NCBI GenBank assembly: GCA_052327205.1
Contig: JBMRGM010000043.1
Span: 31,806,001 to 31,870,000, forward strand
DNA length: 64,000 nucleotides
Reading direction: 5' to 3'
DNA from: Somniosus microcephalus
Taxonomy: Eukaryota
Both the position numbers and the translations under genes were made by a program. Every line of letters begins with the position of its first letter. The first letter of the stretch is position 1. The notes beneath the pieces were generated by a model. The model had not been told where the DNA came from. It saw only the letters and a program-made list of their open reading frames with translations, and did not search any database. This document shows positions 24,965 to 54,100 of the stretch, piece by piece.

Positions 24965-25066
24965 TGCAGATTCTCACAAACACGATCAGAGCCTTCGTTC
25001 TTACACTTTTCCTTATGGGTGCCCTGATTGCACTGGTTTGGGTCAATCTTCCCACCAAGAAACAAG
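24965..25066 (+). CDS. Gene 1 TM exon with Arg, intact
   Basis: VQILTNTIRAFVLTLFLMGALIALVWVNLPTKKQ; ttccag acceptor, gtgagt donor. Confidence 0.78.
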
Positions 25067-25294
25067 GTGAGTCATGTTTTACAAGCAGGTGATTGGCTAT
25101 ATAGTCACGTGAAGGGATTCAATGTATTTCATATTTAATTGCCACATTCAAATTGTCAGCATATGATTTGGGAAAGAGACGAGTAGTCTGCGTTGGAGAA
25201 AGCAAAGGTTGTTTGCAATGATGAGATCAGAACAGACAGGAGCCCAGTTATGGGGTGAGTTTGCTCGGTCAAGCGAATGTGTTCCCCTGTGTGC

Positions 25295-26368
25295 TGTAGA
25301 GATTCGAGTATCTCTGGTAAACAGGAACGAATGCAAACCAATATGGTGTGTATACCATGTTTAATTGGAGTTTAGCACGGAATATAACACACTAGGAATA
25401 CAGCAAAAACATACGACCGTGACAAGCAGCTGGTACCAGACCCTATTGGATAGACGGCTGGTGTGCGTGAATAGTTCTTTGTCTTCTGGCCTTTATCTCT
25501 CTCCCTCTGGGGCCTTCGATGGTGAGTGTGGGATCACTCTCAAACGTGTGTTCGACCAGCTTGTCGTCTCATTGCAACTTCTGCTCGGCTCACCCCTCCA
25601 CCGTCTGTGTAGGCAAGCACTCGGTGTGTCACTTTCATTCTCTTTTTAGAGGTGTGCCTGAGGCCAAGTTATTGACAAGACCATTTAACCTATAGATGTT
25701 CCTCTAAAGTCTCATCATCCTGTAACACATCATGTCCTTCATCCAATTGCCACTATTGTTCAATCTTTCTGAAGGTTCTTCCTTTGGAATTCGTGTCTTA
25801 GCTCTCTTGTCCCTCTCCTCCTTAACCCAGCATGTACAAGGGCCGACACAATCCCTGTTGTTCATGGCCCCAGCCAAAGCTGTCACACATTCACCAGTCA
25901 CTATTTCACCTTCATCTAGCCAACGGCCCATTCTAAGATGGATAATTCAACCTCCTCAAATTCCTTTCATTCTATGTCTTTTCCAAATTAATTTTTAATT
26001 AACTTTGCAAGCAGTTCTGCTAAACAAACTTCAAATTCTATCTGTAGAGATTATAATATGGTTATTAGTAACAATAGTCGAAACAAAGGTTGGGACTTCA
26101 CTGGCCAAATTAACAAAGTCAAAACCCAAAATTACATACAACAGATATAGCAGGCCTGGCTGGGCGATCCTATGGACCCCTGTGTGGAATGTTTATGCCT
26201 CACCTAATCTAACCGATTAAATTCATTTTCTCAAATTATAAGGCACGTTTTCCAGGAAAAGGAAACTTCATCAGTCACTCACTTCTCTCATGCCGAAACA
26301 TACAGCCATGTAAACACAGTATTATTGGTGTAGCCATATACATTTTTAGCCACCCCTAGTTTCTAACA
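25295..26368 (-). mobile_element. Solo LTR (about 1.07 kb)
   Basis: TGTAGAGA...TTCTAACA ends, 4-bp TSD gtgc, absent from copy 2; orientation tentative. Confidence 0.72.
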
Positions 26369-26651
26369 GTGCTTTTCAGAATAGGTATGCATCTGGGCAA
26401 GGGGCAGAACAATAAGTGGCAGCATCACTCGTGGTTAGTGTGAGGAGGTGATGTGGCTTAAAGGATTTGTAATTCACTATATGGGAACACCTTAAAGGTT
26501 TCTGCACGTCTTTTCTGCATTAATGCATTTAATGTACGTTTGTAAATATTTAGAATTGAGATGACTGAATATATTTGCTGTTAAACAAAGCCAACTGTAC
26601 AACAATATTTACTACAACTTGCTGAATTTGGTCTCTTCCTATTTTATCCAG

Positions 26652-26679
26652 ACAATTCTTCAAGAATTTCACAACTGGG
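26652..26679 (+). CDS. Gene 1 cytoplasmic exon 1 (DNSSRISQLG)
   Basis: atccag acceptor, gtaagt donor; paralogue of 54459. Confidence 0.7.
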
Positions 26680-29091
26680 GTAAGTCCGAGAATTTTTTAT
26701 ATAAATAAGACATCGTGATACCCCTGAATATTTCTGTATAGCTGAATTAAATGTGGTAAATGTTTGTGCGGTAGATTTTTAACTTGCTTTGAGCTTAAAT
26801 CTGGCATTGGTATCAACTGCCTATTATAGAAATCGTCTCATTGTATTTCATTTGAATTCAATGGGATTGAAAATCATTTGCTTTCTACAACCGGAGCCAG
26901 TTCCGCGATGCCACTTTTAAGCTGGGTGGCAAGTTGAAAATATGTCCCTTTGACTATAGGCATCAATAGTAGCTCGCACTCACACTATTATACTCTCTGC
27001 AGTCTGGAAGAAGTGATCTTTTTTCTAATTTATGTCAGTTGTACCTAAACTTCCTAGCCTAAACTGAGTGAAATTCGCCCTGCATGGTTCAGTAAAAGGG
27101 ACAATTACAAATCGTTTTACAGTCCACACGAAATTAGATTCCAGTGACTTGTGAACGATTTTGTGAAGAAGACTTTATACCCCAAACTCTCCATCACTCA
27201 GTGAGCTTGGCCATTCTTCAATCCTCACATTTAATCATCATGTAAATCACAGGGAACTGAAGCATTCTCGGATTAGTAACATTCAAAGAGTGACTATCTC
27301 AGACAGTGCTCCATTTAACTGAACACGCTTTTCTGGATACAGTTCCAAATTTAGTAGCCTTGAAACCTTTTGTTGGGAGCGAATATCTCGTCCCCTTGTG
27401 AATCCAGTCACAGATTGTTGGTCGACTCTACTATACTGGAACTCTTTCCACATGTGTTTCAACCTCTTACTGAAAGTTGCTTGAAATTCCGATATGCTTC
27501 CGTGGCCCTCAATTTGAAACTGTAGTACAATCTTCTTGAGCTTCGGTATAAACACATATCTGTATACAAAATCACCAATCCACTCATTATCATAAATAGT
27601 TTTGCCAAAAACTTCTCACTCTTCTTTCAAGACTGCACTTTATCAAAATACTCTAACTCCTTTCAAGGCTCTGTCTCACAGGTTTTGGAACCAACCTTCT
27701 GACTCAGCTGTAATATTCAGGAAGAGTCTAGTATGTTTTTTTAAATGAAAATGATATAAAAATTGTACTCCCTGCGCCAGATGTGGGAAATCTGCTGGGC
27801 AGAACACAGAAAGGAAGATCTGGTGGGAAGGATCTCTTGCTGAAAGCAGCAATGCTTGATTTCTGTTCCATTAAGTACCGTGAATGGAAAATCTGGCGTG
27901 TTGTGTTAAGGATGTGTGAAACTCTGCACCACATTCTCCTCTTTGCGTTCCTTCAACATGATTCTTAAAAAAAATGGCAGGAAAAAACATTTTACCCCAT
28001 GAACTTGCAAAAATACCAACTAACATTTTAAGGTGATCTTGATTTATAAGTTACACGGTTGTGATGTATCTCAATATTCTCTACACTTTCCTAATTCCCT
28101 TTCAACTCTGCACCCACAGTTTTTCCAAACAGATACCCAAATATCAAAGATACAATCTTCCATTTATTCGGTATTGACATCTCCCTTCCATTCAGGACAC
28201 AATCGTGTGAAGTTCATTTTATGGTGGAGTTGAAAACAGCTGCTAATGGATCGCTGGCCACCGCCTGATTTTGTTTCCAAATTCAGCTGAAGTGTAAACC
28301 GAGTGGTTAATCCTCTACCGCCCGCTTTCTGCTGGACGGTAAAAGTGAATATTAACATCAACTTTCCAACTTGCCGCTCCAGAATAAACTGGCATTATTG
28401 TCAGCCATCCATTAGAGATAGCGCCCGATTTTCCTTTGAATTAATTTCGAATTTAGAATAATGCGGCGAGTGCTGTTACTGGGCTTCGATTCCTCCACCA
28501 GATTTTTCAATTCTGTACTTGTCCCAGTTGATTCTTACTGCCCAGGCGGTAATGTCGATCATATACACACCTCCAGCTGTCACTCTTAACAGTTAACAAT
28601 CTTCAACGATGAGCAGTATAACTTCATCTGGGGCCACAGCACACAGCGAGCACTCGTGAAAACGTGTCGCTTTTTGGACTCCGCCGATTTGAATTTCCAT
28701 AAATTATAATGGTTCAAAAATGATCTGGAGGACTTCTAAACGGACATCCATTTCGCTACCTCTCGCTTTGAGCTGTCTTCAAGGACCAAATTCAACTCCA
28801 GTTAATCAAGTTGAGTGAACACTGGAAAATTTCAGTGAGATCATTCAGGATCTGCTGAGACTAGGTCTTCAGACCCCTTGGGAGGAAAGTGCCAGAGCCC
28901 GGGCCCCTGTCTACCTTGAGCTTCTTCAACTTATCCAATTGATGTGGCCTTGCGATTTTAAAGAATTGTCTCTTGTAAACTGCTTGCTGATTTTTGACAA
29001 TTAATCTACGATTTCATTTTATTTAAAAGTGATAGTTCCGTTGTTGGTGATTATTGTTAACTTTAATCTCTGAAAACATATCTGCACCAAG

Positions 29092-29177
29092 GGAGACAAC
29101 TAGAAACAGACCTCCAGGTGAAGAGAAGTCTGCAGACAATTCCGAGTATGCAGCTGTGGAATCAGCGCAAAGCACCG
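29092..29177 (+). CDS. Gene 1 cytoplasmic exon 2 with SEYAAV motif
   Basis: aag acceptor, gtaagc donor; paralogue of 56472; read-through reaches a stop at 29201-29203. Confidence 0.68.
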
Positions 29178-29554
29178 GTAAGCTCGACCTAATCTGCATG
29201 TGATGAACCGTAGATTGTTCGGGGTAACATTTCCAGCGGGAGCACTCAATACCGTTATGGCTTCGGTGGAAGATCAGCGAAATCTCCAGACAGATGAGCC
29301 TTTCTGCAAGTTTTCAACCGAAATTCCACAGAAGTTACGACGAGGCTCTGGGAAAAGCCACATAGAAATTCTATTTCCTCATCTGCGTACATTCAACACA
29401 ATATAGCGTTAGATTTTCCCCTTCACCGTCTGGACTTTCAGCATCAATATCTCTAACAATTTCTCAAAGTCTATGTCAAGTCTATTTCTATGTCTCTGCC
29501 TATGTCTATGTCTCTGTCTATCTCCAGCTCTATGCCGAAATCTATGTCTACCTC

Positions 29555-30677
29555 AAAAAGAAAATACTGCAGCTGCTGGAAATCTGAAATAAGAACAGTA
29601 AATACTGGAGATACTCAGCAGGTCAGGCAGCATCTGTGAAGAGAGAAACAGAGTTAACGTTTCAGGTCGATGACCTTTCATCAGAACTGGAAAAAAGCAG
29701 GAAACAGAACAGATTTATAAGCAAATGTAGGAGCTGGGAAAGGGGGGAGGGTATGAAAGAACAAAAGGGAAGGTCTGTGATAGGATAGAAGGCTGGAGAG
29801 GTTAAGAGACATTAAGAGATATTCAAGGCAAAAGGAATTCGTAATGGGGCAGGTTAAGGAATAAAGGATGGCTCTAGATGAAGTGTAAATTGCGCTGGCA
29901 GAATGAAAGACAGTTGCCATGTGTGAGGGAAGAACAGAAGGCACAAACAAAAAATGTGGATAAATCATATATATCTGATAGAGGCCGAGGTTATGTTCTG
30001 AAATTGTTGAACTCGATATTGAGTCCGGAAGGCTGTAAAGTGCCTAATCGGAAGATGAGGTGCTGTTCCTCGAGCTTACGCTGAGCTTCCATGGAACAAT
30101 GCAAGAGGCCGAGGATGGTGAGGTCTGAGTGGAAATGGAGCGGTGAATTAAAGTGACAGGCGGCCGGAAGCTCGGGGTCACCCTTAAGGACTGAACGGAG
30201 GTGTTCCCCAAAGCGGTCACCCAATCTGTGTTTGGTCTCCCCAATGTAGATGAGACCACATCGTGGGCAGTGAATACAGTATACTAAATTGCAGGAAGTA
30301 CAAGTAAATCGCTGTTTCACCTGGAAGGGGTGTTTGGGGCCCTGGACAGTGGGAAGGGAGGAGGTAAAAGGGCATGTGTTGCAAATCCTGCACTTTCATG
30401 GGAAGGTGCCGGGCGAAGGGGAAGGGGTATTGGGGTTGATACAGGAGTGGACAAGGGAGTCGGGGAGGGAGCCGTCCCTTCAGAATGCTGAAAGTGGAGG
30501 TGAGGGGGAAGATGTGTTTGGTGGTGGGATCACGCTGGAGGTGGTGGACATAGTGGAGGATGATCCGTTGAATGTGGAGGCTGGCGGTGAAAGGTGAGGA
30601 CAAGTGGAACTCTATCGTGGTTCTGGGAGGGAGGGGCAGGGGTGAGGGCAGGAGTGCGGCAGTTAGAACGGACACGG
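29555..30677 (-). mobile_element. Penelope-like element 3' part (GIY-YIG endonuclease)
   Basis: ORF 29991-30320: FTCTSCNLVYCIHCPRCGLIYIGET...RFGEH...HFN...GLN. Confidence 0.92.
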
Positions 30678-30917
30678 TCTATGTCAACCTCCATCACTAT
30701 GTCTATAACTATCTCCATGCCTATGTCTAGCTCTACCTTTATATCTCTATCTCTATCTCCACGTCCAACTCTCTTATCTATATCTCTCTGTATATCCTAG
30801 TCTCTTGCATTCAATCTCACTCTATTGCTCTAACTCTCTATCCTTTGTACCTATCTATCTCTATCTCTCTATCTGTCTGTATATATCCATTTCTATCTCT
30901 ATCTCTCCTCTCTCTAT

Positions 30918-31666
30918 GGGCTGGATTTTTCGATCGGAGCCTTCCTGCGGATGGAGGCCTCCGATCGGAAAATATATAACATATAAGAACTTATCTGCTG
31001 GCTGCATAGGTCCCTCGACTTCCGATCCTGGGCCTCTGCTCTACGAAATATGCAGAGGCCCAGTTATCTCAGGGGTGCAGGCGGTTCGCAAGCGTCCCTG
31101 GGATCACGTGGGCCATGGGGAGTGGGCCATGGGGAAACAGTCAAAGATGGGAAACCCCCTTCACACTTTTGAAAGGTCTCTACTCACAGATCTTTCAAAA
31201 GTATGAAAGGGGATCACTTACAAATAAGTTAAACATTATTGTTTTTCAAATCCCTTTTTAAAAATTAGTTAAAATTACATTAAATTAAATATTTTGAAGA
31301 AAAATTTGTTTTTGAAAAAAATATAGTTTTTTAAGGAGGTATTATAAATACCTACATTATAAATGTGAAAAAATAATCATTTTTTGTTTTAATTTCTTAT
31401 GCTGGTGAAAGCAAGCATTACACCTGTGTTTACCAGGCGTAAGATTTTGAAAGCTTTTCAGCAGGCAGAAGTTGTGCAGAAAGCGGAATTCTTCACCGGC
31501 GGAGGTCCTTTTCCCGGGCAGGTGGAGGATCTGTTAAGAAAATTCTTGACAGATCGGATGAGCCGGGTTTTAATGCATGCGCTTCACATGCCTGAAACTG
31601 GCACTTGCGAGGTCCCTACAGGTGAGTGCACAACTCGTACATACCCGGTGTGGGAAAACCGGCCCC
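30918..31666. mobile_element. Harbinger-like MITE
   Basis: Termini gggctggatttt and aaaaccggcccc, AT-rich centre. Confidence 0.7.
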
Positions 31667-32860
31667 ATATCTCTAACACTATCTCAATGACCAAGTCTAT
31701 GTCTAGCCGACTTCTGCATATTTGTCCATGTCTATGTCTGTGTCTATCTCGAGCTCGATGTGGATATCTATGACTACCTCCATCACCATGTCTATAACTA
31801 TCTCCATGCCTATGCCTAGCTCTACCTACATATCGCTATCTCTATCTCGACACCCATTGACCTCTCCTATCTATATATCTTTGTATATCCCAGTCTCTCA
31901 TTCTATCTGTATCCCTCACTTTAAATCAACATCTCTCTATACCTCTAACTCTCTATCACTATGTACCTATCTATCTCTATCTCTCTATCTCTGTATCTCT
32001 CTCTGTACCTCTCTATATCTGTCTAAACCCATTTCTATTACTATCTCTTCTATCTCTTTGTATATCAAAGACTCTCTCCCTATACATATATACATACATG
32101 TGTATATATATATATATATGTATATATATAATATACCTCTATTGGTATCACTATGCACGTTATTTATTTCTATCGCTATCTCTTGCTCCAGTTCGTTGTC
32201 TGAGATTCTCCATCATTATATCCATTTCAATACCCTCTCTGCCCATGTGCATATCTCTATCTATGCTGATTAATATTTGTATCTCAATCTCTGTGTCGAT
32301 CTCTAGCACTAGCTAAATCTCTAATACCTCTAACTTCTTCCCTCCAATCTCCATCTCAATGTATATCCCAGTTGCTCTCATTCTACCAGTATTTCACACA
32401 CTATTTCTATGTATCTCTATTTCTATCGATCTATCTCTCTATCTATGTCTCCCTATCGCTATCTCTATCTACCTAACTGTATATATCTCTATTTATCTCT
32501 GTCTCTCTACCTCTCCATTTCTCTATCACACTCTCTATCTATGTCCAGTTAGAACTCTACCGATATCTCACTTATCTCTACCTCTACGCCAATCTCTTTC
32601 TACATATTTATATAGCTCTATTTGTATCAAATCATTTATCTGTATCTCCATGTCTATCTCTCATTCATTCTCTACCAATATCTCCAAACTTATGTCGGTC
32701 TCAATCCGTTCTCTTCCTCTGTGCCTATCACAACCTATGTTGTTTAACATCCCTCTTTCTCTGTATTCTGTATCTATCTCTATTTTTATAAATATCTCTG
32801 CCTGTATCTCAATCTCCATCTATAATCTATAATCTCTATCTCCGTCTCTAATCTGTCATT
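31667..32860. repeat. TCTA/TCTC low-complexity tract at the duplication junction
   Basis: Degenerate (tcta)n and (ta)n; the same tract occurs at 1-150 and 30678-30917. Confidence 0.85.
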
Positions 32861-35800: not shown

Positions 35801-36399
35801 CCTGGTGATTTCTAGGCCTATTGCTCGGGGCATTACTTGTGTACAAAGCAGTGCTTTTAATAGTGAATGACAAATGTCCTACACCAGGCGATGAGCCACC
35901 ATTGTCACTGCACACAGGTTTGAAGAAGTCTATTTCTGTGATTTTAATCAGGGGAGAGTTATTACTGATGACTGACATTCTGGTGTGGGGGGAGTGTCTG
36001 TAATTAAGGCATGTGTTGGTTACCAGCTTCACTTTGACACGGATATTCAGAGTTCACCCCTTCATTGGAAAGTTTCTGACGTACAATGAATAGGTTGCAG
36101 TGTTAAATAAACAACTGAGCTTGTTTTATAATTGTAGACTCTGTTTCGATTGGCAGCTCAGAAAAATCTAAAGAGCTAAAATCAATTAATTGCTCCTTAT
36201 AACGAATAAAATTAGTAAATGTATCCTTGCTATTGAAATGCCAGGTGGTTTTTAGACATCTCTGCTGTGCTTCTGGCCCAACTGAAGGATTTACAACCAA
36301 TGATCTATTTTCAATTTCGATATGCATACTGCAATAAATAATGAAATGTTGCGATAACTTCAGAAGGTGGCTTTAATTATTTTACAAACTGAAAGCTGA

Positions 36400-37000
36400 C
36401 CAGTACCGGTTCAGGTACTGAATGGCATAATCAAAGGGCAGGACCTGTATAGGTCGCATATGCATCAGTCCCAGTATTTCATGTAGTATTGACAGTCCTG
36501 TACCAGCAGGACACTGTAGGTACTAATCACAGAGCTGTACAAAGAAGGTAGCGTGGTTAATAATCACAGATCAGTATCAATAGACTTGTGCAGGTAATAA
36601 TAAAAGCATGCACCTATATGACAGTGCAGTTGTTAATCAAAATCCTGTACCGGTAGGATAGCGTTGGTATGATCAGGAATATGTATATTTTGCAGTTTAT
36701 GTACTGATACCAGGTCTGTAAAATTAGGGCAGTGTCGGTACTAATCACAGACCTGTAACCAGACGGCACTGTAAGTACTGATCATAGACCACTACCAATA
36801 GGACAGTATATGTACTAGTTATACACGGAATAATCATAGTCATGCACCAGTAGTACAATATAGATATTAGTCATAGAACTTTTCCAGTAGAACAATGCCG
36901 GAGCTAATCAGAAAAGAGGGTATTATAGTTAATAATTACAGACTAGGACCTCAGCACAGGTACTAATCACAGGCCTGTACCAATAGGACAGTTTCGGTGC
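36400..37000. repeat. Degenerate minisatellite, unit about 37 bp
   Basis: Paralogue of 4850-5455. Confidence 0.65.
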
Positions 37001-37014
37001 ACATTAGAGAACAA

Positions 37015-37630
37015 AACATATGCGATCCTGTGCTTCACAAAGAGAGGCGTAGAGTGCAAAAGCCAGGAAGTTAGGCTAAATCAATATAAATCACTGGTTC
37101 GTCCCCAGCTAGAATGTTGTTTCCAGTTCTGGGCACCGCACTTTAGGAAGGACGTGAAGTCTTTGGAGAGGGTGCAGGAGAGATTTATTAGAATGGTTCC
37201 AGGGATGAGGGTTTACAGTTACGTGGATAGCCGAGAGCAGCTGGGGTTGTTCTTCTTAGAGCACAAAAGGCTAAGAGGAGATTTGATAGAGTTCTTTAAA
37301 ATGATGAAGTATTTAGGTAGACTAAACAAATGACTGAAGCCTCCATAACCAAACGGCAGATAATTAAGTTGATTGGCAAAAAAAGCAGAGGCGACATGAG
37401 GAGAAACTTTTTAACACGAGTGTTTAGGATATTGAATGCATTGCCCAATAGGGTGGTGGATACAGATTCAATAGCAGCTTTCAAAAGCGAATTGGATAAA
37501 TACGTGATGGAGAAACAAACTGCAGGGATATGGGGCAAGAGCAGGGGAGTGGGGCAAACTGGATTGCTCTTCGAAAGAGCCAGAGCAGACTCGAGGGGAC
37601 GAATGGCCTCATTCTCTGCTGTACTACCCT
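37015..37630 (+). mobile_element. CR1 LINE 3' fragment (paralogue of 5465)
   Basis: Same insertion, predates the duplication. Confidence 0.85.
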
Positions 37631-39093: not shown

Positions 39094-39124
39094 ATGAAAC
39101 ACATCTGTTGCCTTCTGATCTTCT
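39094..39124 (+). CDS. Gene 2 leader exon S1 ([10 protein letters not shown])
   Basis: ATG plus hydrophobic codons, 31 nt, gtaagt donor; conserved at 9482 in copy 1. Confidence 0.85.
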
Positions 39125-42100
39125 GTAAGTGAATCTCAAATATTACCAGTGCCTTTGAAAATCTGCATCACTCACCCCGGACCCACAATCAGATTAATAA
39201 GGCTCATTGTCTAAAAGGCAGCGACGCTCTAAATTGATATTGACAGTTTCTGAAAGTAAGACATTTATTTAAAATGTGTTGAAATATCATTTGTAGGTTT
39301 CAGTTTTAAGCTGAATTTAGTGCAACAATGCTACGTTTGATTATGCAGGGTAACAGGATCTTTCTGCTCATCTAAAGAGATCCACTTTACTATAACAGGT
39401 TGCTTCTAAACAGCATAATATTTTTGCTTTACCAATTATCTAGCCTCACCTGCAGAAACTGCTTTCAAATTTCTAATTCTTGTAGTTTTGCTTATAAGTA
39501 GGAATTAACAGTGTTATGCACTTCATATCAAGTGTCAGCGTTGTCCCAGTTGTTTCACTCTTACTAAATGCTATTAATAAATGCGGTGAGCTTTGCAGTG
39601 CTTGGTCTCTGTGGCTAGCTGTTAAACTTGGTCTAAAGCATTGCTTCATGATTTTCTGTGGCCCAGACTGGCTTCTTGTTAAACATCTGCTATAGAGAGA
39701 CTGGTATAAAGATAGATTTATAGAGAGATAGAGAGGGAGAGACTTTCACACAAACACAAACACACACACACAAGCAGATAACTAAAAATGCAGAGAGAGA
39801 CCGAGACACAGATAGAGTCAAAGGGAGAGAGAGCAAGAGAGAGAGAGATTGAGATGGAGTCAATGAGTCAGAGTGAAAGAGGAAGATTAGCACACGAGAG
39901 AGACAGTGAAAGGGATACCTCAAGTCATAGACACAGATGACTGAGGGAGAGACACAAAAAAGAAGCAGAGAGAGGACATGAGGGAGAGAGAAGGAGGTAC
40001 AGACACAGAGTTAGAGACACAGGTACAATGCAACAACATGCAGTGAAACAGATAGGCAATGAGAGAGAATAAGCGTCAAATAGACAGAGAGAGAGCAACA
40101 GAGAGTGACATGCAGACAGTGACACTGACATAAGTTAATTCAGAGAGAGAGTGAGACCGAGAGATCTACGGGCAAAGGGATGAAGACCGGGAAAGTTTTA
40201 CAGAGAGAGAGTGAGTCGGCGAAGGAGAGACAGACAGAGTGAGAGACAGACAAACAGAAGGCAAACATGCAGGGAGGCGGTGGGCTAAAGATCCTTGAGA
40301 GAGACCGAGAGGGGGAGAGGGGGCAGAGCGAGAGACACACAGATAGGGACAGAGCGAGACAGAGAGAGATTACAGTCTTTTTTTCAACTCAACTATGCAC
40401 AAACACTATGATTATATTTTTTAAATTACTGGTGAAAGGGAGAACAACATACAGCAATGTGTTAACCGGGAACCATTTTTAATTTCAGGCTCGTTTAATA
40501 TCTGCTGCCTAAACTGGAGTTAACAAAGCTGAAGAAATAACATTTACTTTGATTTAACTTGAGCTAAACTGACGGCTTCAATGATTTTGGCAGCGAAATT
40601 TATAATTGTGGATCTTTACTTTTAATGTCTGATGCAATTTACTGGAATTTAGACAGAAGTGACTCCTTATGGTCAAATGCCATTGAGACTGCCTTGTTGT
40701 GAGGTTGTGACGTCAGCGCTCTGTTGTCTTGTTAGCCACTGGACCACAAGAACAGAAAACAGGAACAAACAGTGTCTGCATCTTTAATGTACCACCGACT
40801 CTTTCACCATAACCTCATCTAATTTAATAACATGGCGTTAGTTGTGGGACCATGTTAGCCACAGCTAGTTCCACAGCTTAATGCGGTAAATCTTAAATGA
40901 TGATTAGTAATGCTTAATTTGTTTGTTCTTGAGCTTATAATCGCCCCCATGTTTTATATGTTGCTCAGCACATAAACCTTGTTAAAATAATTGGCCAAAT
41001 TGAATACTTGTAACACTCACCCCATTGTATCCTAGCTGGACAAAAGGCCCAGGTTCTACATGTTGAGCAGTGACATTCAGAGACATCTGCATTGATCTTT
41101 GACCCTTTTGCAATTATTTTTGCAAAGTTTGCAGCAACAGGCATTGCCTTAGTAATGTGATTCCTCTGGTCTGAGGCCCGACAAAATCTTTCTGCAGCCA
41201 GCTGCTTGATCATGCACCTTCTTCACGACGAGCAGTAGCAACCCAGTCAAAACTTGTGATGCTGATTAGGATAAAGACGATTTAAATGAAGATAGCAACA
41301 TAAGAACAGGAGTAGCCCATTCAGCTCTTCGAGGCTGCTCTGTCATTCAATTATACCATGTTTGATCTGTACATCAACTCCAATGACGCCCCTTTGCTCA
41401 GCACATATTGTTACCCTCACTCAACTAGAGGCAGCCGTGGCTCAGTGTGTAGCACACTCGCCTCTGAGTCAGAAGTTTTCTGGATTCAAGTCGCAATCCA
41501 GACACTTGAGCACAAAAATCTGGGATCAAATTCCAGTGCAGTGCTGTAGGAGTGCTGCACTGTCGGAGCTGCCGTCTTTTGGATGATACTTTAAAGCGAG
41601 GCCCCGTCGGGGAGATTATCCCCGGTGCCCTGGGCAATATTTATCCTTCAATTAAGATAAAAAAACAGATTATCTGCTCATTATTATCATCACTGTGAAA
41701 ATTGACATCTACGGTTCCTACAGTGACTACACTTCAAAAGTATTTCATTGGCTGCAAAGCGCTTTGGGAAGTCCTGAGTTTGTGAAAGACGCTCTAAAAA
41801 TGCAAGTCTTTCTTTTTTTAACTAAAATCTATCTTGATCTCCGTATTGAAAGTTCCAATTTACACCCAGATTCCACATCATTCTTAGCGGAGTGAGTTGA
41901 ATTTTGTGAGAAGGTGCTTCCTGATTTCCATTTTAAATGGCCTATCACTAATTTTATTCGAAATGTTTCCTTCTCCATGACAGAACAAACACACTCAGTG
42001 GCTCTCAGAACAAGGACTCATTAAAATCTTTGTCAGTTTCCTTTCATCTGGCAGCAACTTTTCCATGTAGTCCTCAGACAATTAGGATCATCAAAATAAA

Positions 42101-45100
42101 TCTTATCTTTGTTCATGAGAGGGTCAATTGTCATAGTTCGGCACGCATAGACTGGTGGTAAATGTGGTGCTGCATGTTTTATGTCCCTGCCGAAGTCGAA
42201 TTTCACCCCCCAGTTATTTCCTCTTAGCAGCTGAGGTCAAATTTGAAGATGCTCTCAGTTCATGAAACATATTTTACATTGTCTTCTCTCTTGCAGTGCA
42301 AATTATTCATCAGGCGACAACACAAGGTATGATGACAATAATGTCCATTTTTGATAATCCAGTTTGTGGAATGAACGCTTCCAATTTATATCTACAGGGC
42401 AGCAGCAATCCAGCAATGGAGTAATTGTCAGCTGTTCGCCCGAGCGAAAAACTGACCTTCTGGACTCGCCACCTATGAGACATGCTCGAACATCATTTTC
42501 ATTGATTGAGTGGAAATGTAAAGTGGGCGGTTTCTCCAATGGTCGTCCAATCAGAACCCCAGATTTAAGCCTCAGCACCAAGCTTAATGTTTACCACAAT
42601 ATATTAAAGACAAAATGATTTATAAATTGGTCTGGGTAACTGCCAGCTCAGTCACCTGAGGATTGGAAGAGAGCAATCATAATTGAGTAATAAATGGATG
42701 GATAAATAGAGAGCTCTTTGATGAAGTAACAGCAAGTGCTGATGAAATGAGTGCTTAATGAACTTCCACATAACAGACCTGTGAGCAAATTTGAAACCCA
42801 TGTGAATAAGGGGAAGTGGCAGTGTGGATAAGAAATGGGCTGAGACTAAATGCAGAGACTAGTTATGAAGTGAATGTTCAGTGGTGTCTCGCAGATGTCT
42901 TTATTGGGTTCACTGTTCTGTCTGATAATTATATATCACCTGGATTTGGGTATACATGTGCACAACTACAAACCTTGCAGAATCATGAAGCTCGGAAATG
43001 TAGCAAGCATTGCGAAAGATAGAAAGAGACTTCAGAAAGAGAAAGACAGACGGCCGACGTAGGCAGATACAATATATTGCTGGAAATTGCAGAGGAAATT
43101 TACTAATATTGTACCAGGGACACGGGATTTCAGTTGCATGGAGAAACGAGGGCTGTTCTCCTTTGAGCACCGAAGTTTAAGGTGTGATTTGATCGAGCTG
43201 TTCAAAATCATGAAAGGTTTTGGTACAGTAAATAAGGAGACACTTTTAAATGTTATGTTAATTGTTATAGTTGAAACGCCTACCGGTGACAATGGGAGGC
43301 GATTGTGCCGCCCAATCTTTGGTCCTACTGAAAATGGTAGGGTGCTGAGTGTCTGCGTTAAAGCAATGGTAAGACTACCGACCCCAGTTCGAGACGGTTA
43401 CCACCCGATTTCACCAAGTTAATGTCACCTCTTAAATAGAAATTTCGATCAATAGACAGCCGTTAGGTAGCTCCCGGTTGGGACACTGAGTAGAAATACC
43501 CACTGTATTGACTACAGTAGATAGTGCATAGATTAGAAATTTCAATATTTCTAATCATAAATTCCATTTATTGTCTTTCTGCAGCTCCTGGGCCGGAAGT
43601 GCTGGTTAGTTACCCCAGCAGTGGTGTGGTAAAGGAAGGAGAGGAATTTAAGCTGCATTGTCGATACAGTGGCAAAGTTACTTCCACTCATTGGTTTAAA
43701 AATAAAGTACATTTAAATAAAACTCACAGTGAGTTTTATGAATCGCTTGCGGACAGTAGCAGTGGAGGCTCTTATCACTGTGCCCTGTTGTCAAACAAAT
43801 GGGAGAGGAGTGAACCTCTGGAAGTGGTCACCATCGGTAGGTGAACTTTGACACTTAAAATCATAGAAAATAGAAAAATCTACATTTATATGGCATCTTG
43901 CACGACCTCCGATTGCACTTCACAGGCAATTAAGTACTTTTCAATATAGTCACTGATGTAATGTGAGATAAGTGACAGCTAATTCGGGCAGAGCAAAGCT
44001 CCCACAAACAGCAGTGTAATAATGACCAGGTCATCTTTTCAATTCTATTGGTTGAGTGATTGAGCTTCCAATTATTTTTGTGGGAACTTTAACGCCCACC
44101 TAATAGGCGATACAGGGCCTCGGTATAATATCTCATCAAAAAGGCTCCGTTTCCTTCAATAATGACACCGGGAGTCTCTGGAGTGGGGTTCAAACCAACG
44201 CCTCACTATCGCAGAAGCGTTTGGGCAGCAAGTGAGCCACACCTATTGTTAGTTATTGACTGCTGAGTCAAACCGCTGGAAGTGGCCACCATCGGTCGGT
44301 GAACTTTGACCCACAGTCAGCTCAGCCTTTGTCCCGAAAAGTTAAGTTTTTAAAGAGGTCTCTCAGTAAATCGTAAGACAGTATATCAAACATGTTACAT
44401 ACTTGAACAAAATTGCCAAATGGTCACTGGGATGAAGCGTGTGGCGAGTCCACAAAGCTGAGGTCACTTTTTCCTCAAATCCCTTCAACCAGCTCTGTTC
44501 TAAACAATCCCAGCTCCTCTAGCCTCACCACACCTGATGAACAAATACCAGTCGTTCCTTGAGAGAGGGCCGAGTTTGTTGCTGATTGGTAGAATCGGAT
44601 TTCGAAGTAAAAGTTATTTGATTGACATTTGAAGGACCACATAAGGGGGTGTCAGCTGAACTTAATAAGGGACACGTGACTTTCTAATGCCACACTTGTC
44701 GCTGGGGCTTTTTGCATTATAGATGTGGTGTTCGTTACTGAAGTGATTACTATAGCTGCTCTTTAAAGGAAATAAATATAGGATGTCATACCTGTAGTTT
44801 AACATATTCCAGTTTGTGCTTACTTAATATTTCTTACATATTTTCAGCTTCTGATATGTTTTTAACTCTTGAAGTAAATCCAAGGGCCGCGCTGACAGGT
44901 GAAAGAATTATCCTGAATTGTTTGGTGTCTGACCAGAAAGGGAAAGGATACTTCCTGTGGTATCAGAAAGAAGAGATAATACATGGAACTTCTCAATCTC
45001 AGTACATCATAGCTAATGCAAAAATTGCAGATGAGGCATCTTACCGGTGTGAACGCAGAATAGGCTACAGGAAGTGGGTCTCACTGGAAGTAAACATCAC

Positions 45101-48100
45101 CATAGCAGGTTGGTCACTGGCTTTGTTGTTTTCCTCCGAAACGTGCTGCTTGTTAATTTGCTGAAAGATGGAAAACGATTCGAAGAATATTCTTTGGCTA
45201 GACAATTTCTGTTGAAATTGGTAAATATTGGCAAGTACTGGGAAAACATTACAAGCTGGGCACTGTAGGCAAGTCTCTGGTTCGCATGTGGCAAAATAAC
45301 ACACTCCGTTAACTCTAAGGGCCCCATGAATCCATAGGAGGGGAGGCCTCCATCTCCTGAGAACTATCGGGAAATGTCGTTGGAGGTCATTTGCGTTTCA
45401 TTTCCGTGCTCTCACGCTGCTGGGCGATTTCATGTGCATCCCCGTGCTCATATCACTAGGGCTGCATATGGGTTAGTAATAACAGTGTCGTTAGAATGTG
45501 GAACTCGCTCCCACAGGGAGTAGTTGAGGGAATTGCATTTAAGGTGAAGCTAGATAAACACATGAGGGAGAAAGGAATAAAAGTATATGTTGATGGGGTA
45601 GATGATGAAGGCTGGGAAGAAACACGTGTGGAAAATAAGCACCTGCATGGACTTATTGGGCTATCTGCTGTAAATAATGTGTACAATGTTCTTTGCGTCA
45701 GGAGGAGCTGTTCCGGTCTTCCACTAAATTTTCCTATCCATTTAGCTATGGCGGACCACAATAGAGGGGCCACCTGATAAACACTGGTGGTGGAGCTTTC
45801 GTCAGAATAATCTGCCAACAAAAGTCTTTTTGAGGATCCAAGGGCATCCTAAATAGAGAATATATTATACAGCTTTTTGACTTAAATACAATCACCGAAA
45901 CTCCCGCCTGCCGATCGTAGGTCCTGGGGGACTTTGAACTGCTAATTTTCAGCCGCAACCTGAACGTCCCATTTCAGGCTAGTGGCAGTGCTCCAGGGCC
46001 AAATGATGTGCGCCTGTGACTGCCGTATGCAAAGCAACGTAAGGCCATCCCAACTTAAACGGATTTGCTGCTAATGAATGGGAGATTGTAGCTGAGTCAG
46101 GCTTATAGCTGAGGCCTGGAAGATTTGGCGCACTTTTTCCATTATGTTCACAACGCACCTCTGGCACCCTGTGCCCGCTGGGCGTCTCAGAATGCAAAAT
46201 GAGCTGGATGCCCTCCTTACCGACTCTGGTGGGGTGGGTGGAATGCTCCTCAAAGAATCTGGCGGAATTTCCTTCTATTGAAATCAATGGATAGCATATA
46301 TGGCGGGTTCAGTATGCTATAACTGATCCTTTGCGCCGGATTTTCGATTCCCTTATCTGATTAGGCATTGCTTACCCGCTCTACCAACATAGATCATTTT
46401 CAGTGTTCCAACCTAGGAAGAGCTGGGCCAAATGGTGGGGAAGTGCTGCACGAGGAGGGCAATATCAATAAACCGCAATTAGAACCATCAGTTAATTCAT
46501 CACCAACTGTCCACTGCTTCCTTTCTGTTCTGTATTGGGCCCAAACTTGATTGGAGTTGGGATTGGGATTATATAACGTGTCCAATGTATTCGGGCTGTT
46601 GTAGAAGCAGTTCTCAGTTTGATTTAAGCATTTGTTGAACTAAACCACGAAATTCTGCTCCCGCTATTAGATGGCGATGTGGCCTTCCATGTCGACCCAC
46701 CTTCGGGTTTGGAAGGAGATGTTCTGATTCTGAATTGTCGGTACAGAAACTATTATTTGTGGAAAGATGTCGGTTTTTACAAAGGCAATAGAATAATCCA
46801 CTCAATGAAGTTGAATAATTGGAAAGCTCTGCATAGCATTAGAATGAATAGATCAAAAGAAAGCGGATCGTACCATTGTACTATTGACGATAAGATTTCT
46901 CGAAGTGTTCATGTTCAAGTTTATGGTATGTATGCAATAATTCAATTGGTGATATCCCTCTTTAAAATATATTCATCTTTAAGGTCCGAGAAGTTCTAAA
47001 TCTGTACAAAATTATACATAATTCTGTGATTCCGGAAAAATGTGTTCGCGTTAGTTCATAAGATGTTTATCTAACAACGTGCTACTTTAGCCGATATATA
47101 ACCCAGGGCGGGTCTCCTCCCGTGCCAGCACCAGCAGCTTTCTTTCTCCTCCCACCCCACCTCAGAGGTGAATTTGGCGGCTACCCCCATTACCACCATG
47201 TCACATCTAGAGGCTGACGGGGAGTTTGCTCCCAGGAAACCGAAATATGATGCTGCCTCTGTCCTTAACAACCACGATGAGGAGTTGACAAAAAGTACCA
47301 GCAGGTCCTCGTGAGCCCCTGGAACTTCAGTGGTGAGTCCGCTGACGGACTTTGTGGTAGGATAGAATAAGCAGTCTGCTCCTCTCCACTCTCTTTTGCT
47401 AGCATCACTTACGTGTCTGGCGTAAGCATCGTCACAGACTCCTAATAAACTATGGGAGCAGATTCCCTTGGATGCCCATGTCATCGCAGCGGGTGTGTTA
47501 TATCATCACTGATCCATCACCCTGGCCATGACAATCCGGAGTCTTTGTAATTTCAGATGCTGACAGCTGAGCGGGGGGCTGGCTGGGGACAGAGCGGTGT
47601 AGCTGTGAACATTTGTGGAGTTCACCGTGGTCATAGTATACGGTGAGATGCAACAGAGCATGGCTGAAAGAGAAAAGATCTATGGGAGGTTTCCTGCTGA
47701 AAGATAATTCTTGCCCAGCATGGAATTCCTGTTTCAGCAGAATATATTAAGTAGATTAAGTTCTCCGCAATCAAATAATCGAGAGGAAGTCCATAACACC
47801 CGCCCGCTCCAGTTTTCCACAGTACAGCTGCTGGTTACCATGAAGTATAGCCGCCCCTCGTGGCGATTCTTGGTATTGCCTTGCTCTTATTATCAATCAC
47901 TGCTAGGTGTTTAACTCAGTGATAGGATCCGTTATCTGTCAATCCAGATTCTGTTTTCACAGAACTCTTCGCCAAACCTAAACTGAGGACTGAGCCTGCA
48001 GTTGAAATATTTGAGGGAGACCAGTTAAAATTGATCTGTTTTGTTGAAACAATGGTGTCCAGTATTGGGCTGCAATACTCGTTTTACAAAAATGGCAAAG

Positions 48101-51100
48101 CTCTGAGCTTGAATGCATACAACAACTTTAATCTCACTGAGGCAGCTTCTTTGAAAGACTCGGGGACTTACCTGTGTGAAGCAAATGTTTTATACCGTGG
48201 TGTGAAAAAGAAGAGCAATGAGGTTTCCATTGTGATAAAAGGTAAGGACAACCAGCTGTAATTATTGTTCATCTTTCATTTAAACATTTCTTCATGTGAT
48301 TTATTTAAATCAACGTACCAGAGGAATCCATTCTGGTAAAGAAACATAGAAACACTGAAGCTAGGAGCAGCAGTAGGCCATTCGGCCCCTTGAGCCTGTT
48401 CCATGATTTAATGAGACCATGGCTGATCATCTAAATTCAGTACCCTGTCCCTGCTTTCTCCCCATATCCCTTGATCCCTTCCACCTTAAGAAATATATCT
48501 AACTCCTTCTTGAATATATTTAATTAATTGGCCTCAACTGCCTTCTGTGGTAGAGAATTCCATAGGTTCACCACTCTCTGTGAAGAAATTCCTCCTCATC
48601 TCAGTCTGAAATGGCTTACCCCTTATCCTTAGACTGTGACCCCTGGTTCTGGACTCCCCCGCCATTGGGAACATCCTTCCTGCATCTAGTCTGTCTAGTT
48701 CTGTTAGAATTTTATAAGTTTCAATGAGATCCCCTCTCATTCCTCTAAACTCTAGGGAATATAAGCCTAATCGATCCAATCTCTCATCATACGTCATTCC
48801 TGCCATCCCTGGTATCAGTCTGGTGACTCTTCGCTGCACTCCCTCCATGGCAAAAACATCCTTCCTCAGATAATGCGACCAAAACTGCACACAATACTTA
48901 AGGTGTGGTTTCGCCAAGGCCCTGTACAACTGCAGGAAGACATCCTTGCTCCTGTGCTCGAATCCTTTCGCTATGAAGGCCAACATACCAATTGCCTCCT
49001 TAACCACCTGCTGCACCTGCATGCTTACCTTCAGCGACTGGTGCACAAGAACACCCAGGACTCATTGCACGTCCCTTTTCCCAATCTATTGCCGTTCAGG
49101 TAATAATCTGCCTTCCTGTTTTTGCCACCAAAGTGGATAACCTCGCATTGATCCACATTCTAATGCATCTGCCATGCATCTGTCCAATCACCCAGCCCGT
49201 CCAAATCAACCTGGAGTTCCTCAGCATCCTGCTTACAGCACACACACACACCCAGCTTTGTGCCATCTGCAAACTTGGAGATATTACACCTAGTTCCCTC
49301 GTCTAGATCATTAATATATATTGTGACTATCTGGGCTTCTAGCGCTGATCACTGCGGTACCCCACTAGTCAATGCTTGCCACTCAGAAAAAGACGGGTTT
49401 ATTACAACTCTTTGCTTCCTGTCTGCCAACCAGTTCTCTATCCAAGTCCCAATCCCATGTGCTTTAAATTTGCACGGTAATCTCTTATGCGGGACCTTAT
49501 TGAAACCCTTCTGCAAGTCCAAATGTGCCACATTCACTGGTTTTCCCTTATCTGTTCTGCCAGTTATATCCTCAAAAAATTCCAGTAGATTCGTCAAGCA
49601 TGATTCACCTTTTGTAAAGCCATGTTGACTTTGTCCGATCTGGTCACTGTTTTCCAAGTGCTCTGCTGTTACATTATTCATCATGGAGTTTAGCATTTTC
49701 CCCACTTCCGATGTCAGGCTTACCGATCTTTAATTCCCCTTTTTATCTCTACTACCTTTTTTAAATAGTGGGGTTACATTAGCTACTCTCCAATCCATGG
49801 GCATTGTTCCAGCTTCTATCGAATTTTGGAAGATGACCAGCAATGCATCTACTATTTCTAGGGCCATTTCCTTAAGTGCCCTAGGGTGTAGATTATCAGG
49901 CCCTGGGGCTTTATGAGCTTTCAATGCCATCAATTTGCCTAACACCATTTCCCTACAAATAGTGATTTCATTCAATGTCTCCCTCTCATTAGACCCTATG
50001 TTCCCCGACATCTCTGGGATGTTAGTTGTGTCCTCCTTTGTGAAGACAGTACCAAAGTATGTATTTAATTGGTCTGCCATTTCTTTTTTCCCCATTGTAA
50101 ATTCCCCTGATTCTGACGGCATGGGACCTACGCTTGACTTCACCAATCTTTTTCTCTTCACATATCTTATGACGCTTTTACAATGAGTGTATACGTTCCC
50201 TGCAAGCTTACCCTCATATTTTATTTCCCCCACTTAATTAATCGCTTTGTCTCCTTTGCTGAATCCTAAACTGCACCCAATCCTCATGTTTGCTGCTTTT
50301 TCTGGCCAATTTAGATGTCCTCTCATTTGATCTTATGCTATCCCTAATTTCCCTTGTTAGCCACGGTTGAGTCACCTTTTTGTTTTATTTTTATGCCAAA
50401 CTGGGATGAACAAATCCTGTATTAAGATCTACCCACAGGTTTAACACGTAATAAATCAATTTTGAGTGCAATCTGTTTAAATCATATCGCCACGTGGCAC
50501 TTATACAATCCATACATTTGCGAAAAACTGCAAAGTTTGATGACCAGTGCCCACTCCCAGTGGGTAATATTAGCTTCCTGTAAGAATGTGGAATGGGCGG
50601 TATTTGATTTGCCTCCAATTATATATCCCGCCAGTTTTTGCCTCCCAACATTTTAATGGATAGGGAAATCGTGCATGGTCTACAGTTGGCACAGGATACG
50701 ATGCCGCGCATTATACCCCACAGTCATGAGGTGAAGTTACCTCCTCTGTTTCTGTCTGGCTGAATCAGCACAGGGCAGTAACCGGTCAGGAATAGCTGGG
50801 AGATAAATCAGACAATGCCTCATTTCTTACTAGTCCCGGAAATCTTTTATAGTTGAAAACGCTTGGGTGAAATTTAAAGTTGAGAGCACAGAAGCGGATC
50901 AGCAGACAATGGAATAGAAATTGGCCTGTGTTTATAAAGGGATGACCAATCTGCTACCATGGGTGTTGCACCCAAACCAAACTTGAATTTTCACCTCCTT
51001 CCATTTCAGTAAATGGGGAGGAAAAACGCTTGAAGTCACTAAAGTCTGTGCCTCTGAATCCCTCGGGATTTCTTTTCCATTCAGTTAGATCCAGCCAATC

Positions 51101-54100
51101 ATAACTCTAACTTTGCATTTTCAATGGAGCAGGCAATCTGAACACAATGTGACAGTTATCGATCCTGTGTCAGCAGTGGATTTCAGAAGAATTGTAGTGT
51201 CAAGAACTGAGCTTTTAACAATAACGTCCCAAAATTTGCAGCTGCTGCAACAATGATGAAGGAGACGTCACTATCTAACGCCTGGGCGCAAAGCATCGCC
51301 TGGGCTGAGAGCAGGGATCAAATTCTGGAATAGGGGAGCATTGGGATTTTTTGGAATAATCTCAGAGGACCCACAGGATTTGCCTTCCATTCATTGTTCT
51401 GCTGCACAAACACGGAAATTGTTAAGTCTGTGATAGACGAAGAACCTGTCAAATCCCTATTTCATTCTATTTTATAGAGGCCTTCTCCAACCCTACGTTG
51501 ATGGCTGAGTGTGACGCTCAATTATTGGAGGGCCAACAGTTAAAACTCGCCTGCTTCGTTGAAATATTTCGATCCAATTCTTCTTTGAGATTCGTATTCT
51601 ACAAAGATGGACAACCTCTCAATTCAGCAGCAGAACACAACTATTACATCAAGGAGACATCTAGGCCGGACGATTCGGGGATTTACCGGTGTGAAGCAAC
51701 TACTTTGAACAGTGAGGTGAAGAAACTGAGTAATGAGGTTTCCGTTTCAGTCAGGCGTGAGTAAAATTTAAGATAATTGATTATCACTTTTAAAGAGAAC
51801 CTGAAAATCATAGAAAACGGGCAGCGCTGATTCAACAGATCACCAGGGAAGTAAAATGGTTTGCAGCAGGGTAGACTTGAGGTACTGGGACTAACACTAC
51901 CGGGTTAGCCATGGCTAAGGGTTATTTCATTAGTGTTGTTTACATGCCAATTGCGAGATAGGGCGATTATGGACAGATATTCTCTGATTACAAAGACAGG
52001 AAGGAGGGATCAGTAATGTATAATTATCATTAAAGCAGGAGGGTAGCGCTTAGAAGAACCTTCTTTACATAGACGAGTGCTGGAACATAGAATGATTTGT
52101 CAGGTGGAGCGGTGGAGTTAGTTACCATTGCATTTAGGTTTGAGTATTGTTTATGGTACTGGAACAGTGCATGGCACCTGCCTTTGAATAGCAATGTGAA
52201 GGGCAACCAAGTGTGGTGTATGATGAGCGGATAATTCCACATCCTGCATTTACACCATCTTGTAAAAATTCAAAATACCCCGAGTTGTTCCTTTTAAAAT
52301 CAGTGCAAGTTGTACTGTTGGCTCATTGTCACCACCTCATTGAGGCCGGTGACAAACGAACGCTGCACATGAGTGTTTCAGTGCATAAATTTCATACCAG
52401 AAATAATCATCATGTTTGATAGCACCAAAATATTATCGTCCACTTGCTATATTCCCGGTTTGATATACAATCCTGTTGAAAACGTTCAATTTTGGATGAA
52501 AACCTATTATTTGGAATTATGTGCAGTAACTTTAGTTAGAACTAATATTCGATATCACTGATGGTACAGCACAAGGGCAAATCTGAACTAAATATTTTCA
52601 CCAATGCATTTGCAGCTGATCAGCAATTCTTGCACTAGTCTGATTTACATATCTGATTTAATCTATGTTAGTACTCAAAATAATTTCAATTTTGAATTGT
52701 CACTTGCAGAATTAGTTCTCTACATCTTCAAAATTATTTGCTTTCCTGTAGCTGGTGCTTCTCTCACTTCCATTAACGACAAAACTGAGATTTCAGCGGG
52801 GGACCGTCTCGTTCTCCAGTGCCTGGTGAAGAGAGGCACTGCACCACTTTTCCTCTGGTACCTGAACAACCAACAGTTAGGAAACAACAGCGAATCTTAC
52901 CAATTAAACACGGACGGGAGTGAGCTCATTATCAATTCATTCCAGATAGGCCACGGAGGTCGGTATCACTGTGTAGCGACCTATGAAGGAATATATAACA
53001 CAACCAGCAATTATATCAACGTCACGATACAAGGTAACAGAACATTGTGTTTGATCTGATTTTATGAATTACTTTTCTTTCGGCAAAGTAAACAGTATAT
53101 TGCATTTGCATGCTTTATATTCAGAAATGACACATCGCAGCTCAGGTGAAAATTTATAAGAATAGTTTCTGATTAAGTAATTGAACTTAACTAGGTGAAA
53201 CTCGTTCTGAAATAAACTAGCAATATTTCCCACGGGCGCATTTGAAGTTGAAATCGATAAGGATACAAAGCAGAGCCATGATCATAAAGCGACAGTGAGG
53301 GGAATATTGGGAGGGATGAGCAAAAACCTAGCTGCAAATATGGTTCCTGTGAGGATGTTTGAAGCAGGCTGTAGTAGATGTGGTTTAGGAGAGTAGAGCC
53401 AAAGCACTTTCACTCACTAATTGTCTGACAAAGGAATCGTGTACTCCCAATAGGCCACAAATCAATTGACTGAGGGCTGTATGGATGGAGATAAAATTGG
53501 AGGAGATTTTTTTAAATGATAAGGAACACGAGGACCTGGTGTTTAAAGTTGTTTCCTTCGAGTACATGAAGCTAGATGGGAAAAATGGCGAGTAGGTTTT
53601 GGTGTGGGACAGGGACGTCTGGTTTAGTTGTATTTTGTGGACGGCGGCATTAGGAGCCCAGAAAGTAAGGCATTGTAATAATCGAGTCTAGAGCTGACAA
53701 ATCCAGGAATCAGTGTTTCAGAATGACGGGGCTGAGCTGGGTAGAAATGGAATCCATTCAGTGCAGATTTTAAAAACAATTGTAATTCTTCCTATGGTGC
53801 GAGGTTGAATTTGTACTGCTTGGAACGGTTTGATGTGATTCATGGAACAAGTTTGTTTGATTCCAGCACAAAGTCAAACAACCGCGATCACAGCAACAGT
53901 TATTCCAGTTTTTCTGATCGCTGCCCTGATTGCACTGGTTTTCTTCAAACTTCGGAAGAAGAAACAAGGTGAGCAGTGTCTTACGGGCAGGTGATTGGCT
54001 CGACAGCCACGGGATGGGATTCATTACCCTCCATATTGAGTTGCATCATTCGAAATGTAGCAGAATGATTTGAGAGGGAGACGCACATTTTGGGCGGGAG

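Follow-up and report, generated by a model that had tools for sequence, protein, structure and literature searches.

The window analysed here is a 64,000-nucleotide stretch of the genome of the shark Somniosus microcephalus (6.45 Gb), located at positions 31806001 to 31870000 of contig JBMRGM010000043.1, hereafter C43. It contains two genes for immunoglobulin (Ig) receptors, gene 1 and gene 2, which are related by a tandem duplication of about 32.7 kb and whose closest named relatives are shark and ray protein models annotated 'Fc receptor-like'. An earlier note had proposed that gene 1, which has an Arg residue at the N-terminal edge of its transmembrane (TM) segment, and gene 2, which has Thr at this position and immunoreceptor tyrosine-based inhibitory motifs (ITIMs) in its tail, form an activating and inhibitory pair. 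Both genes belong to a cluster of 46 shark FcR-like Ig receptor genes that use two interchangeable membrane-and-tail modules, referred to below as Arg and Thr modules. The exons of the two genes are as follows (positions in the window).

Gene 1, leader exon 1: 9483..9513, + strand; ATG, 31 coding nt, GT donor conserved cluster-wide
Gene 1, leader exon 2: 12078..12107, + strand; 30-nt mini-exon
Gene 1, Ig exon B: 12899..13180, + strand; sole open Ig exon of the gene
Gene 1, Ig exon C: 16936..17183, + strand; frameshift by a 10-nt deletion, acceptor intact
Gene 1, Ig exon D (FcR D3-like): 20933..21212, + strand; acceptor lost, 1-nt insertion
Gene 1, Ig exon E: 22521..23167, + strand; interrupted close to the 5' end by a repeat insertion of about 365 nt
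Gene 1, Ig exon G remnant (FCRL D5-like): 24125..24180, end approximate, + strand; stop codon, no donor
Gene 1, Arg-type TM exon: 24965..25066, + strand; 102 nt, AGA codon at 24988-24990, with Asn at position -3 relative to Arg
Gene 1, cytoplasmic exon c1: 26652..26679, + strand
Gene 1, cytoplasmic exon c2 (final exon, SEYAAV): 29092..29203, + strand; TGA at 29201-29203 reached by inferred read-through
Gene 2, leader exon 1: 39095..39125, + strand; 31 nt
Gene 2, leader exon 2: 42297..42326, + strand; 30 nt
Gene 2, Ig exon A: 43585..43836, + strand; open
Gene 2, Ig exon B: 44848..45108, + strand; open
Gene 2, Ig exon C: 46671..46925, + strand; open
Gene 2, Ig exon D: 47963..48241, + strand; open; among solved structures, closest to FCRL5 and FcgammaRI D3
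Gene 2, Ig exon E: 51478..51756, + strand; open
Gene 2, Ig exon F (membrane-proximal): 52752..53033, + strand; open
Gene 2, neutral Thr-type TM exon: 53867..53968, + strand; 102 nt, ACA codon at 53890-53892
Gene 2, cytoplasmic exon c1: 54459..54489, + strand
Gene 2, cytoplasmic exon c2: 56472..56563, + strand; Tyr motif altered to Cys (FECAVV)
Gene 2, exon c3: 57550..57606, + strand; ITIM consensus IIYSVV
Gene 2, exon c4: 58387..58452, + strand; ITIM consensus LVYSEV
Gene 2, exon c5: 62468..62499, + strand
Gene 2, start of terminal exon c6: 63972..64000, running beyond the window, + strand; VTYATV and a terminal YENL motif, followed by the stop codon

All exons of gene 2 (two leader, six Ig, one TM, and six cytoplasmic) are open, and they encode three motifs that fit the ITIM consensus. 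The c2 Tyr residue that is kept in other Thr genes is Cys in gene 2 and in its two near-identical copies. In gene 1, an open frame and normal splice sites are retained by the leader exons, Ig exon B, the TM exon, c1, and c2, and four of the five Ig exons (C, D, E, and G) are broken. An in-frame stop codon is present eight codons past c2, inside the next intron, and the predicted tail would comprise about 53 residues, the read-through end being deduced from the DNA. This tail contains SEYAAV, which fits the ITIM consensus. With two cytoplasmic exons and the putative read-through, it is not very short (the earlier note had spoken of a short tail).

The Arg codon of gene 1 and the Thr codon of gene 2 were confirmed to occupy the same register in their 102-nt exons. 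The difference between these exons is not confined to one base, as had been supposed, since they are only 72.5% identical at the DNA level and 51.5% at the protein level, with replacement of the basic juxtamembrane sequence KLRK of gene 2 by NLPT in gene 1. The reported absence of two ITIM exons from gene 1 was correct in that no homologue of the gene 2 ITIM exons was found there, although the missing exons are four and the ITIM motifs of gene 2 three.

The proposed production of an activating and inhibitory pair by tandem duplication stands as far as the duplication and a family-wide signature are concerned, but does not apply to genes 1 and 2 themselves. These genes were rejected as a real pair because gene 1 is damaged and because the only Ig domain that is open in both (B) is 56% identical; moreover, the Arg/Thr split is older than the duplication. 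It is highly improbable that gene 1 is nevertheless a working one-domain activating receptor, partner of gene 2, produced by skipping of the four broken Ig exons. These exons are all of phase 1-1, so that skipping would hold the reading frame, and the exons required for such a receptor are open not only in gene 1 but also in its twin at C43:31540893. However, the acceptors of broken exons C, E, and G are intact, domain B is only 56% identical to its gene 2 counterpart, and gene 1 and its twin carry the same lesions, as would be expected if a gene that was already dead had been duplicated recently.

Two genome-wide searches each returned 46 candidates, 40 of which were scored, and every listed candidate was located on C43. 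About 1.8 Mb of this contig was surveyed around the candidates, with the segments at 25.42-25.46 and 25.48-25.515 Mb left out. The survey identified 46 paralogous TM exons, the same number as the candidates of each genome-wide search. Arg and Thr were found in 21 and 25 of these exons, respectively, the two types being intermingled along C43. Thus, Arg is not peculiar to the copy in the window. As anticipated in the earlier note, Arg and ITIM loss co-occur without exception: the cytoplasmic exons of all 21 Arg genes are restricted to c1 and c2, whereas c3 and c4 are present in all 25 Thr genes, 24 of which have a c4 that is open and of the ITIM type. The terminal exon gave 24 matches, none of them behind an Arg TM exon (for three Thr genes, it would fall outside the surveyed DNA). 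Juxtamembrane residues co-vary with the TM type, as N-x-P is present in 21/21 Arg copies and a basic stretch in 25/25 Thr copies. The two modules are about 72-79% alike.

Near-identical copies are abundant in the cluster, some of them possibly assembly duplicates, and independent lineages were counted (7 for Arg and 9 for Thr). The Arg codon is AGA in all 7 lineages compared. When 30 distinct TM regions were placed in a tree, one change separated the Arg and Thr regions into two clades with a support of 100/100. This tree places the split before the duplication in the window and rules out its creation by that duplication. The region from 30.37 to 30.95 Mb of C43 is an inverted (mirror-image) duplication centred on an assembly gap at 30665638, and the region at 25.27-25.37 Mb recurs at 30.27-30.37 Mb. 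These duplications may be real segmental duplications or, in part, assembly artefacts.

Several loci of the cluster depart from the two standard arrangements. At C43:25364792-25379620, both leader exons, an Arg TM exon, c1, and c2 are present with zero Ig exons, as in a deleted remnant or a gene for a tiny membrane peptide. Two genes, at C43:30588544-30615072 and at C43:30450684-30487872 (minus strand), lack a TM exon and c1 although Ig and ITIM exons are present, and remnants at C43:30931673 and 30976282 consist of leader exon 1, c1, and c2 only. In four ITIM genes (C43:30920323, 31357944, 31480721, and 31770558), exon c3 is present twice, and its second copy encodes His instead of Tyr.

Near-identical ectodomains associated with opposite modules, as expected for true paired receptors, were not found in genes 1 and 2 but were found elsewhere in the cluster and in a second shark species. 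A 13.7-kb segment of the Arg gene at C43:31677947 shows 99.3% identity with the 5' part of the ITIM gene at C43:31752774. Past a breakpoint at about 31689723, which lies inside a repeat, the similarity switches to another Arg gene, with 98.9% identity along 6.3 kb. The Ig exons of the two twins are 93-100% identical (protein), versus 71-79% (DNA) for their TM and tail exons. On this sequence pattern, C43:31677947 is an activating-type twin made by unequal crossover onto the ectodomain of an inhibitory gene. More generally, the Arg module was found grafted onto several unrelated ectodomains.

The second case is provided by gene models of Heptranchias perlo. The protein XP_067833450.1 (466 aa) is intact, with four Ig domains, an Arg TM, and a Tyr-free tail. 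Its twin, XP_067833427.1, has 352 of 373 ectodomain residues in common with it, together with a neutral TM and two ITIMs. The Ig domains of XP_067833450.1 are 50-64% identical to the divergent Ig exons of two Arg genes of C43, and Arg, the juxtamembrane change (NLPN), and the truncated tail are all kept in this protein. The Arg module appears to be old, as it is shared with Heptranchias. C43 likely holds, at 25.59-25.65 Mb, an orthologue of XP_067833427.1, as judged from sequence similarity. Neutral TMs were found in the remaining elasmobranch relatives that were retrieved, the residue at the Arg position being Thr in Heterodontus as well as in another gene of Heptranchias. Thr with ITIMs would therefore be the ancestral state, a polarity deduced from an unrooted comparison. 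The caveat that the Arg codon could be drift in a dead gene was justified insofar as gene 1 is damaged, but single-base drift in one dead gene is ruled out by the 21 Arg copies of the cluster, the TM tree, and the intact Heptranchias model.

These data can be accommodated by the following model. The Arg module would have originated once from an ITIM-type gene, by a Thr to Arg change, loss of the basic juxtamembrane stretch, and deletion of c3 to c6. The Arg residue would pair with the acidic residue of the FcR-gamma dimer, whose immunoreceptor tyrosine-based activation motif (ITAM) would recruit a kinase of the Syk family, and the ITIM forms would recruit SHP or SHIP phosphatases, as ITAMs and ITIMs are known to do. 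By unequal crossing-over, inhibitory receptors would repeatedly acquire new activating twins, and the majority of Arg copies, including gene 1, would subsequently decay. By analogy with known receptors, the Arg forms probably activate via FcR-gamma and the Thr forms probably inhibit via their ITIMs.

The genome contains the candidate partner. An FcR-gamma TM exon is present on another contig (C40:10607082-10607165), its best solved match being human FcR-gamma (E 1.2e-12), and the second half of the ITAM was found about 10 kb downstream, the gene being recovered in these parts. Within C40:10597501-10607500, the intron following this TM exon is a long minisatellite. According to the accessible text of the corresponding reports, the N-terminal-Arg TM of Xenopus XFL proteins has been demonstrated to depend on, or benefit from, FcR-gamma (PMC2413239), and receptors of the leukocyte receptor complex (LRC) with an N-terminal-Arg TM are stated to couple to FcR-gamma (PMC6557307). 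Based on these precedents, activation through FcR-gamma was judged the most likely function of the Arg forms. Complex prediction for the Arg TM with the FcR-gamma TM dimer spoke neither for nor against binding (score 0.09, mark 0.34). A TM exon of CD3-zeta, whose best match is the solved human counterpart, was also found in the genome (C14), and the Arg TM is devoid of the NxxR context. Arg receptors that are activating or dual-function via CD3-zeta or another adaptor, or partly via the Tyr residue of c2, are accordingly conceivable, and SEYAAV-type motifs are present in gene 1 and in six other c2 exons. We regard this alternative as quite unlikely: the N-terminal-Arg receptors of other families use FcR-gamma, at least in the part of PMC6557307 that was accessible, and the Tyr residue appears dispensable since it has been lost from 11 of the 23 Arg-type c2 exons and from the Heptranchias orthologue (its context is altered in 2 further exons).

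Several observations weigh against FcR-gamma-dependent activation by the Arg forms. Judged by the TM tree, the association of Arg with ITIM loss is one old event that was copied repeatedly and is older than the duplication in the window. With a single origin, the 21/25 split does not amount to 46 independent tests. The FcR-gamma mechanism is borrowed by analogy, because homology between the Arg TM and the NxxR type is lacking, and the Asn residue of the latter is found in only 2 of the 21 Arg copies (gene 1 and its twin). The ratio of nonsynonymous to synonymous changes (pN/pS) of the Arg TM exon is 0.96, an uninformative value for 99 nt and 7 lineages (1.99 for the Thr exon), and invariance of the Arg codon has, by a rough estimate, a likelihood of about 10% under neutrality. 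No RNA data set was listed as containing gene 1, and no Arg-codon transcript of this species was seen in four runs searched for one Arg paralogue, the results being swamped by repeat reads. Among 7998 candidates scored with a profile of seven Arg TMs, one Arg protein was detected, in one other species. Six of the 21 Arg genes, including gene 1, are clearly damaged, four require skipping of an interrupted exon that has an intact acceptor, one lacks a leader, and one lacks any Ig exon. Finally, 10 of the 23 Arg-type c2 exons keep the Tyr residue of SEY, and 7 of these fit the ITIM consensus. The remaining Arg genes comprise six with a leader, open Ig exons, TM, and tail, in which the broken exons have no natural acceptor, two with four open but divergent Ig exons, in which the c2 acceptor is shifted and the fifth domain is reduced to a remnant with a stop codon, and one located behind two unusual Ig exons (C43:21.53 Mb). 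In two contig sets from another organism, presumably derived from RNA, Ig exons were joined E to G and B to G, with a depth of 0 to 2 in the TM bin, too low for reading the Arg codon, and zero over c1 and c2.

The pN/pS value and the neutral expectation for the Arg codon would be explained if the Arg module were truncated and non-signalling, its carriers being ligand-competing decoys or mostly dead copies generated by segmental duplication, with Arg as a passenger. The many broken copies, including the one devoid of Ig exons, point in the same direction, as do the large near-identical duplications, which inflate the copy number. We consider this explanation unlikely in view of the retention of Arg, NLPN, and the truncated tail in an intact model from another shark, despite Ig domains that are only 50-64% identical, and of the grafting of the module onto several unrelated ectodomains.

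The Arg forms were compared with known paired receptors. The Arg TMs display a mean identity of 15% with 12 NxxR-type TMs of retrieved proteins, versus 56% with shark Thr TMs. The Arg TM therefore likely arose independently, from a shark ITIM-type TM, and orthology to the NxxR TM was ruled out by these identities and by the rarity of the Asn residue. The similarity to LILRA, PIR-A, GPVI, and NKp46 that had been noted consequently holds for the N-terminal Arg, but is at best functional. As described in the accessible part of PMC6557307, activating LRC receptors (LILRA, PIR-A, GPVI, NKp46, OSCAR, and FcalphaR) resemble the shark Arg form in having an N-terminal Arg followed by about 17-18 hydrophobic residues. 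Both groups are also devoid of ITIM exons and adjacent to TTYH1. Unlike the LRC receptors, the shark Arg form lacks a conserved DYT/NxxR, and its ectodomains are of the FCRL type rather than the IGSF1/LRC type. Activating KIRs offer a parallel for the proposed origin of the module, since an inhibitory TM exon gained a basic residue by a point change, the tail was truncated, and the result was spread by recombination (PMC6557307, in part). KIRs use a mid-membrane Lys and DAP12, whereas the shark form has an N-terminal Arg and would use FcR-gamma.

The organization of the cluster resembles that of the XFL family. According to the accessible text of PMC2413239, XFL genes form a large, intermingled, FcR-type family in which Arg-TM short-tail and neutral Tyr-motif classes occur in near-equal numbers, with heavy domain shuffling and a split leader. 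The same source describes an NxxR TM1 encoded in one exon together with the tail, whereas c1 and c2 are separate in 21/21 shark Arg genes. The shark Arg TM exon is, unlike XFL TM1, a homologue of the inhibitory TM exon. In addition, XFL genes are linked to CD2/SLAM genes, whereas the shark cluster flanks TTYH1 on a contig other than that of FcR-gamma and nicastrin. The cluster resembles FCRL1-6 and FcgammaRI in having D3-like and D5-like C2 Ig domains and ITIM tails, and its shark relatives carry the RefSeq names 'Fc receptor-like protein 2/3/5'. The second leader exon is 21 nt in FCRL genes and 30 nt in the shark genes (31 + 30), although only a fraction of XFL genes comply with the 21-nt rule (PMC2413239, accessible part). 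The activating shark form also has an N-terminal Arg in place of the classical FcR TM motif described in the same part of that report.

The domain type was assessed by several approaches. Exon D had FCRL5 and the D3 domain of FcgammaRI as its best solved-structure matches, and an FCRL profile outscored an IGSF1 profile in 11 of 11 cluster-type domains. A domain tree agreed weakly with the FcR type, with low support and a single LRC domain included. A word-indexed homologue search with one Ig exon returned a single match, whale FCRL5. Markers of the LRC give mixed evidence of linkage, as PRPF31 is located at C43:16.29 Mb but CNOT3 on C28. Nicastrin marks the FcR-gamma/CD2-SLAM region, and both FcR-gamma and nicastrin are on C40; the cluster, on C43, thus does not show this linkage. 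TTYH1, an LRC marker according to the accessible text of PMC4536121, is located at C43:26.89-27.08 Mb, between the subclusters. A late exon of this gene is present twice, in nearly identical copies 60 kb apart (C43:27019845 and 27079638).

At C43:21511660-21533860 (minus strand), two open Ig exons are followed, at a distance of 14 kb, by an isolated module comprising an Arg TM exon, c1, and c2. The Ig exons, at 21.53 Mb, weakly favoured the IGSF1 over the FCRL profile (15.5 versus 7.0 and 25.5 versus 14.8 bits) and were the only exons with an LRC-type score, no LRC-type Ig domain being found in the cluster genes. Solved-structure searches gave no placement for these exons, and no leader exon was found for this gene. 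A scan between the Ig exons and the Arg TM detected one weak TM candidate, with an insensitive method that missed a known TM. It is possible, although doubtful on balance, that the TTYH1/LRC-syntenic locus of the shark holds both FcR-domain pairs and an LRC-domain gene that, by predicted splicing, also uses the Arg module, as an FcR/LRC mosaic that would support a common origin and represent a second independent invention of the N-terminal Arg for coupling to FcR-gamma.

No description of activating shark FcR-like forms was found in the literature searched, most subscription papers being outside its reach. A 2021 Immunogenetics study reportedly deals with LRC- and FcR-like regions in fish and may touch on such forms. 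If the Arg module couples to FcR-gamma, activating and inhibitory FcR-like pairing would date back to cartilaginous fish. Pairing would then have arisen in sharks by a KIR-like route from an inhibitory gene, at the LRC position. The locus would also be a concrete place for testing the common origin of FcR and LRC receptors, and its products would be candidate receptors for shark IgM, IgW, or IgNAR. A 2014 survey (PMC4016189, accessible part) found sharks to be without any FcRL, FcR-gamma, or LRC gene and traced the emergence of these genes to bony fish. Shark FCRL-like genes are already known by name, from RefSeq and from the accessible part of an atlas that mentions shark FCRL expression (PMC11372145). 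The accessible parts of PMC6795676 and PMC5278576 contain nothing on paired forms.

A D5-type query gave no match on C40 at E 0.01. With another query, dozens of weak and similar Ig-domain matches were obtained on C39, C40, and C41, which suggests that these contigs carry another large multi-copy family of Ig receptors, possibly FCRL-like.

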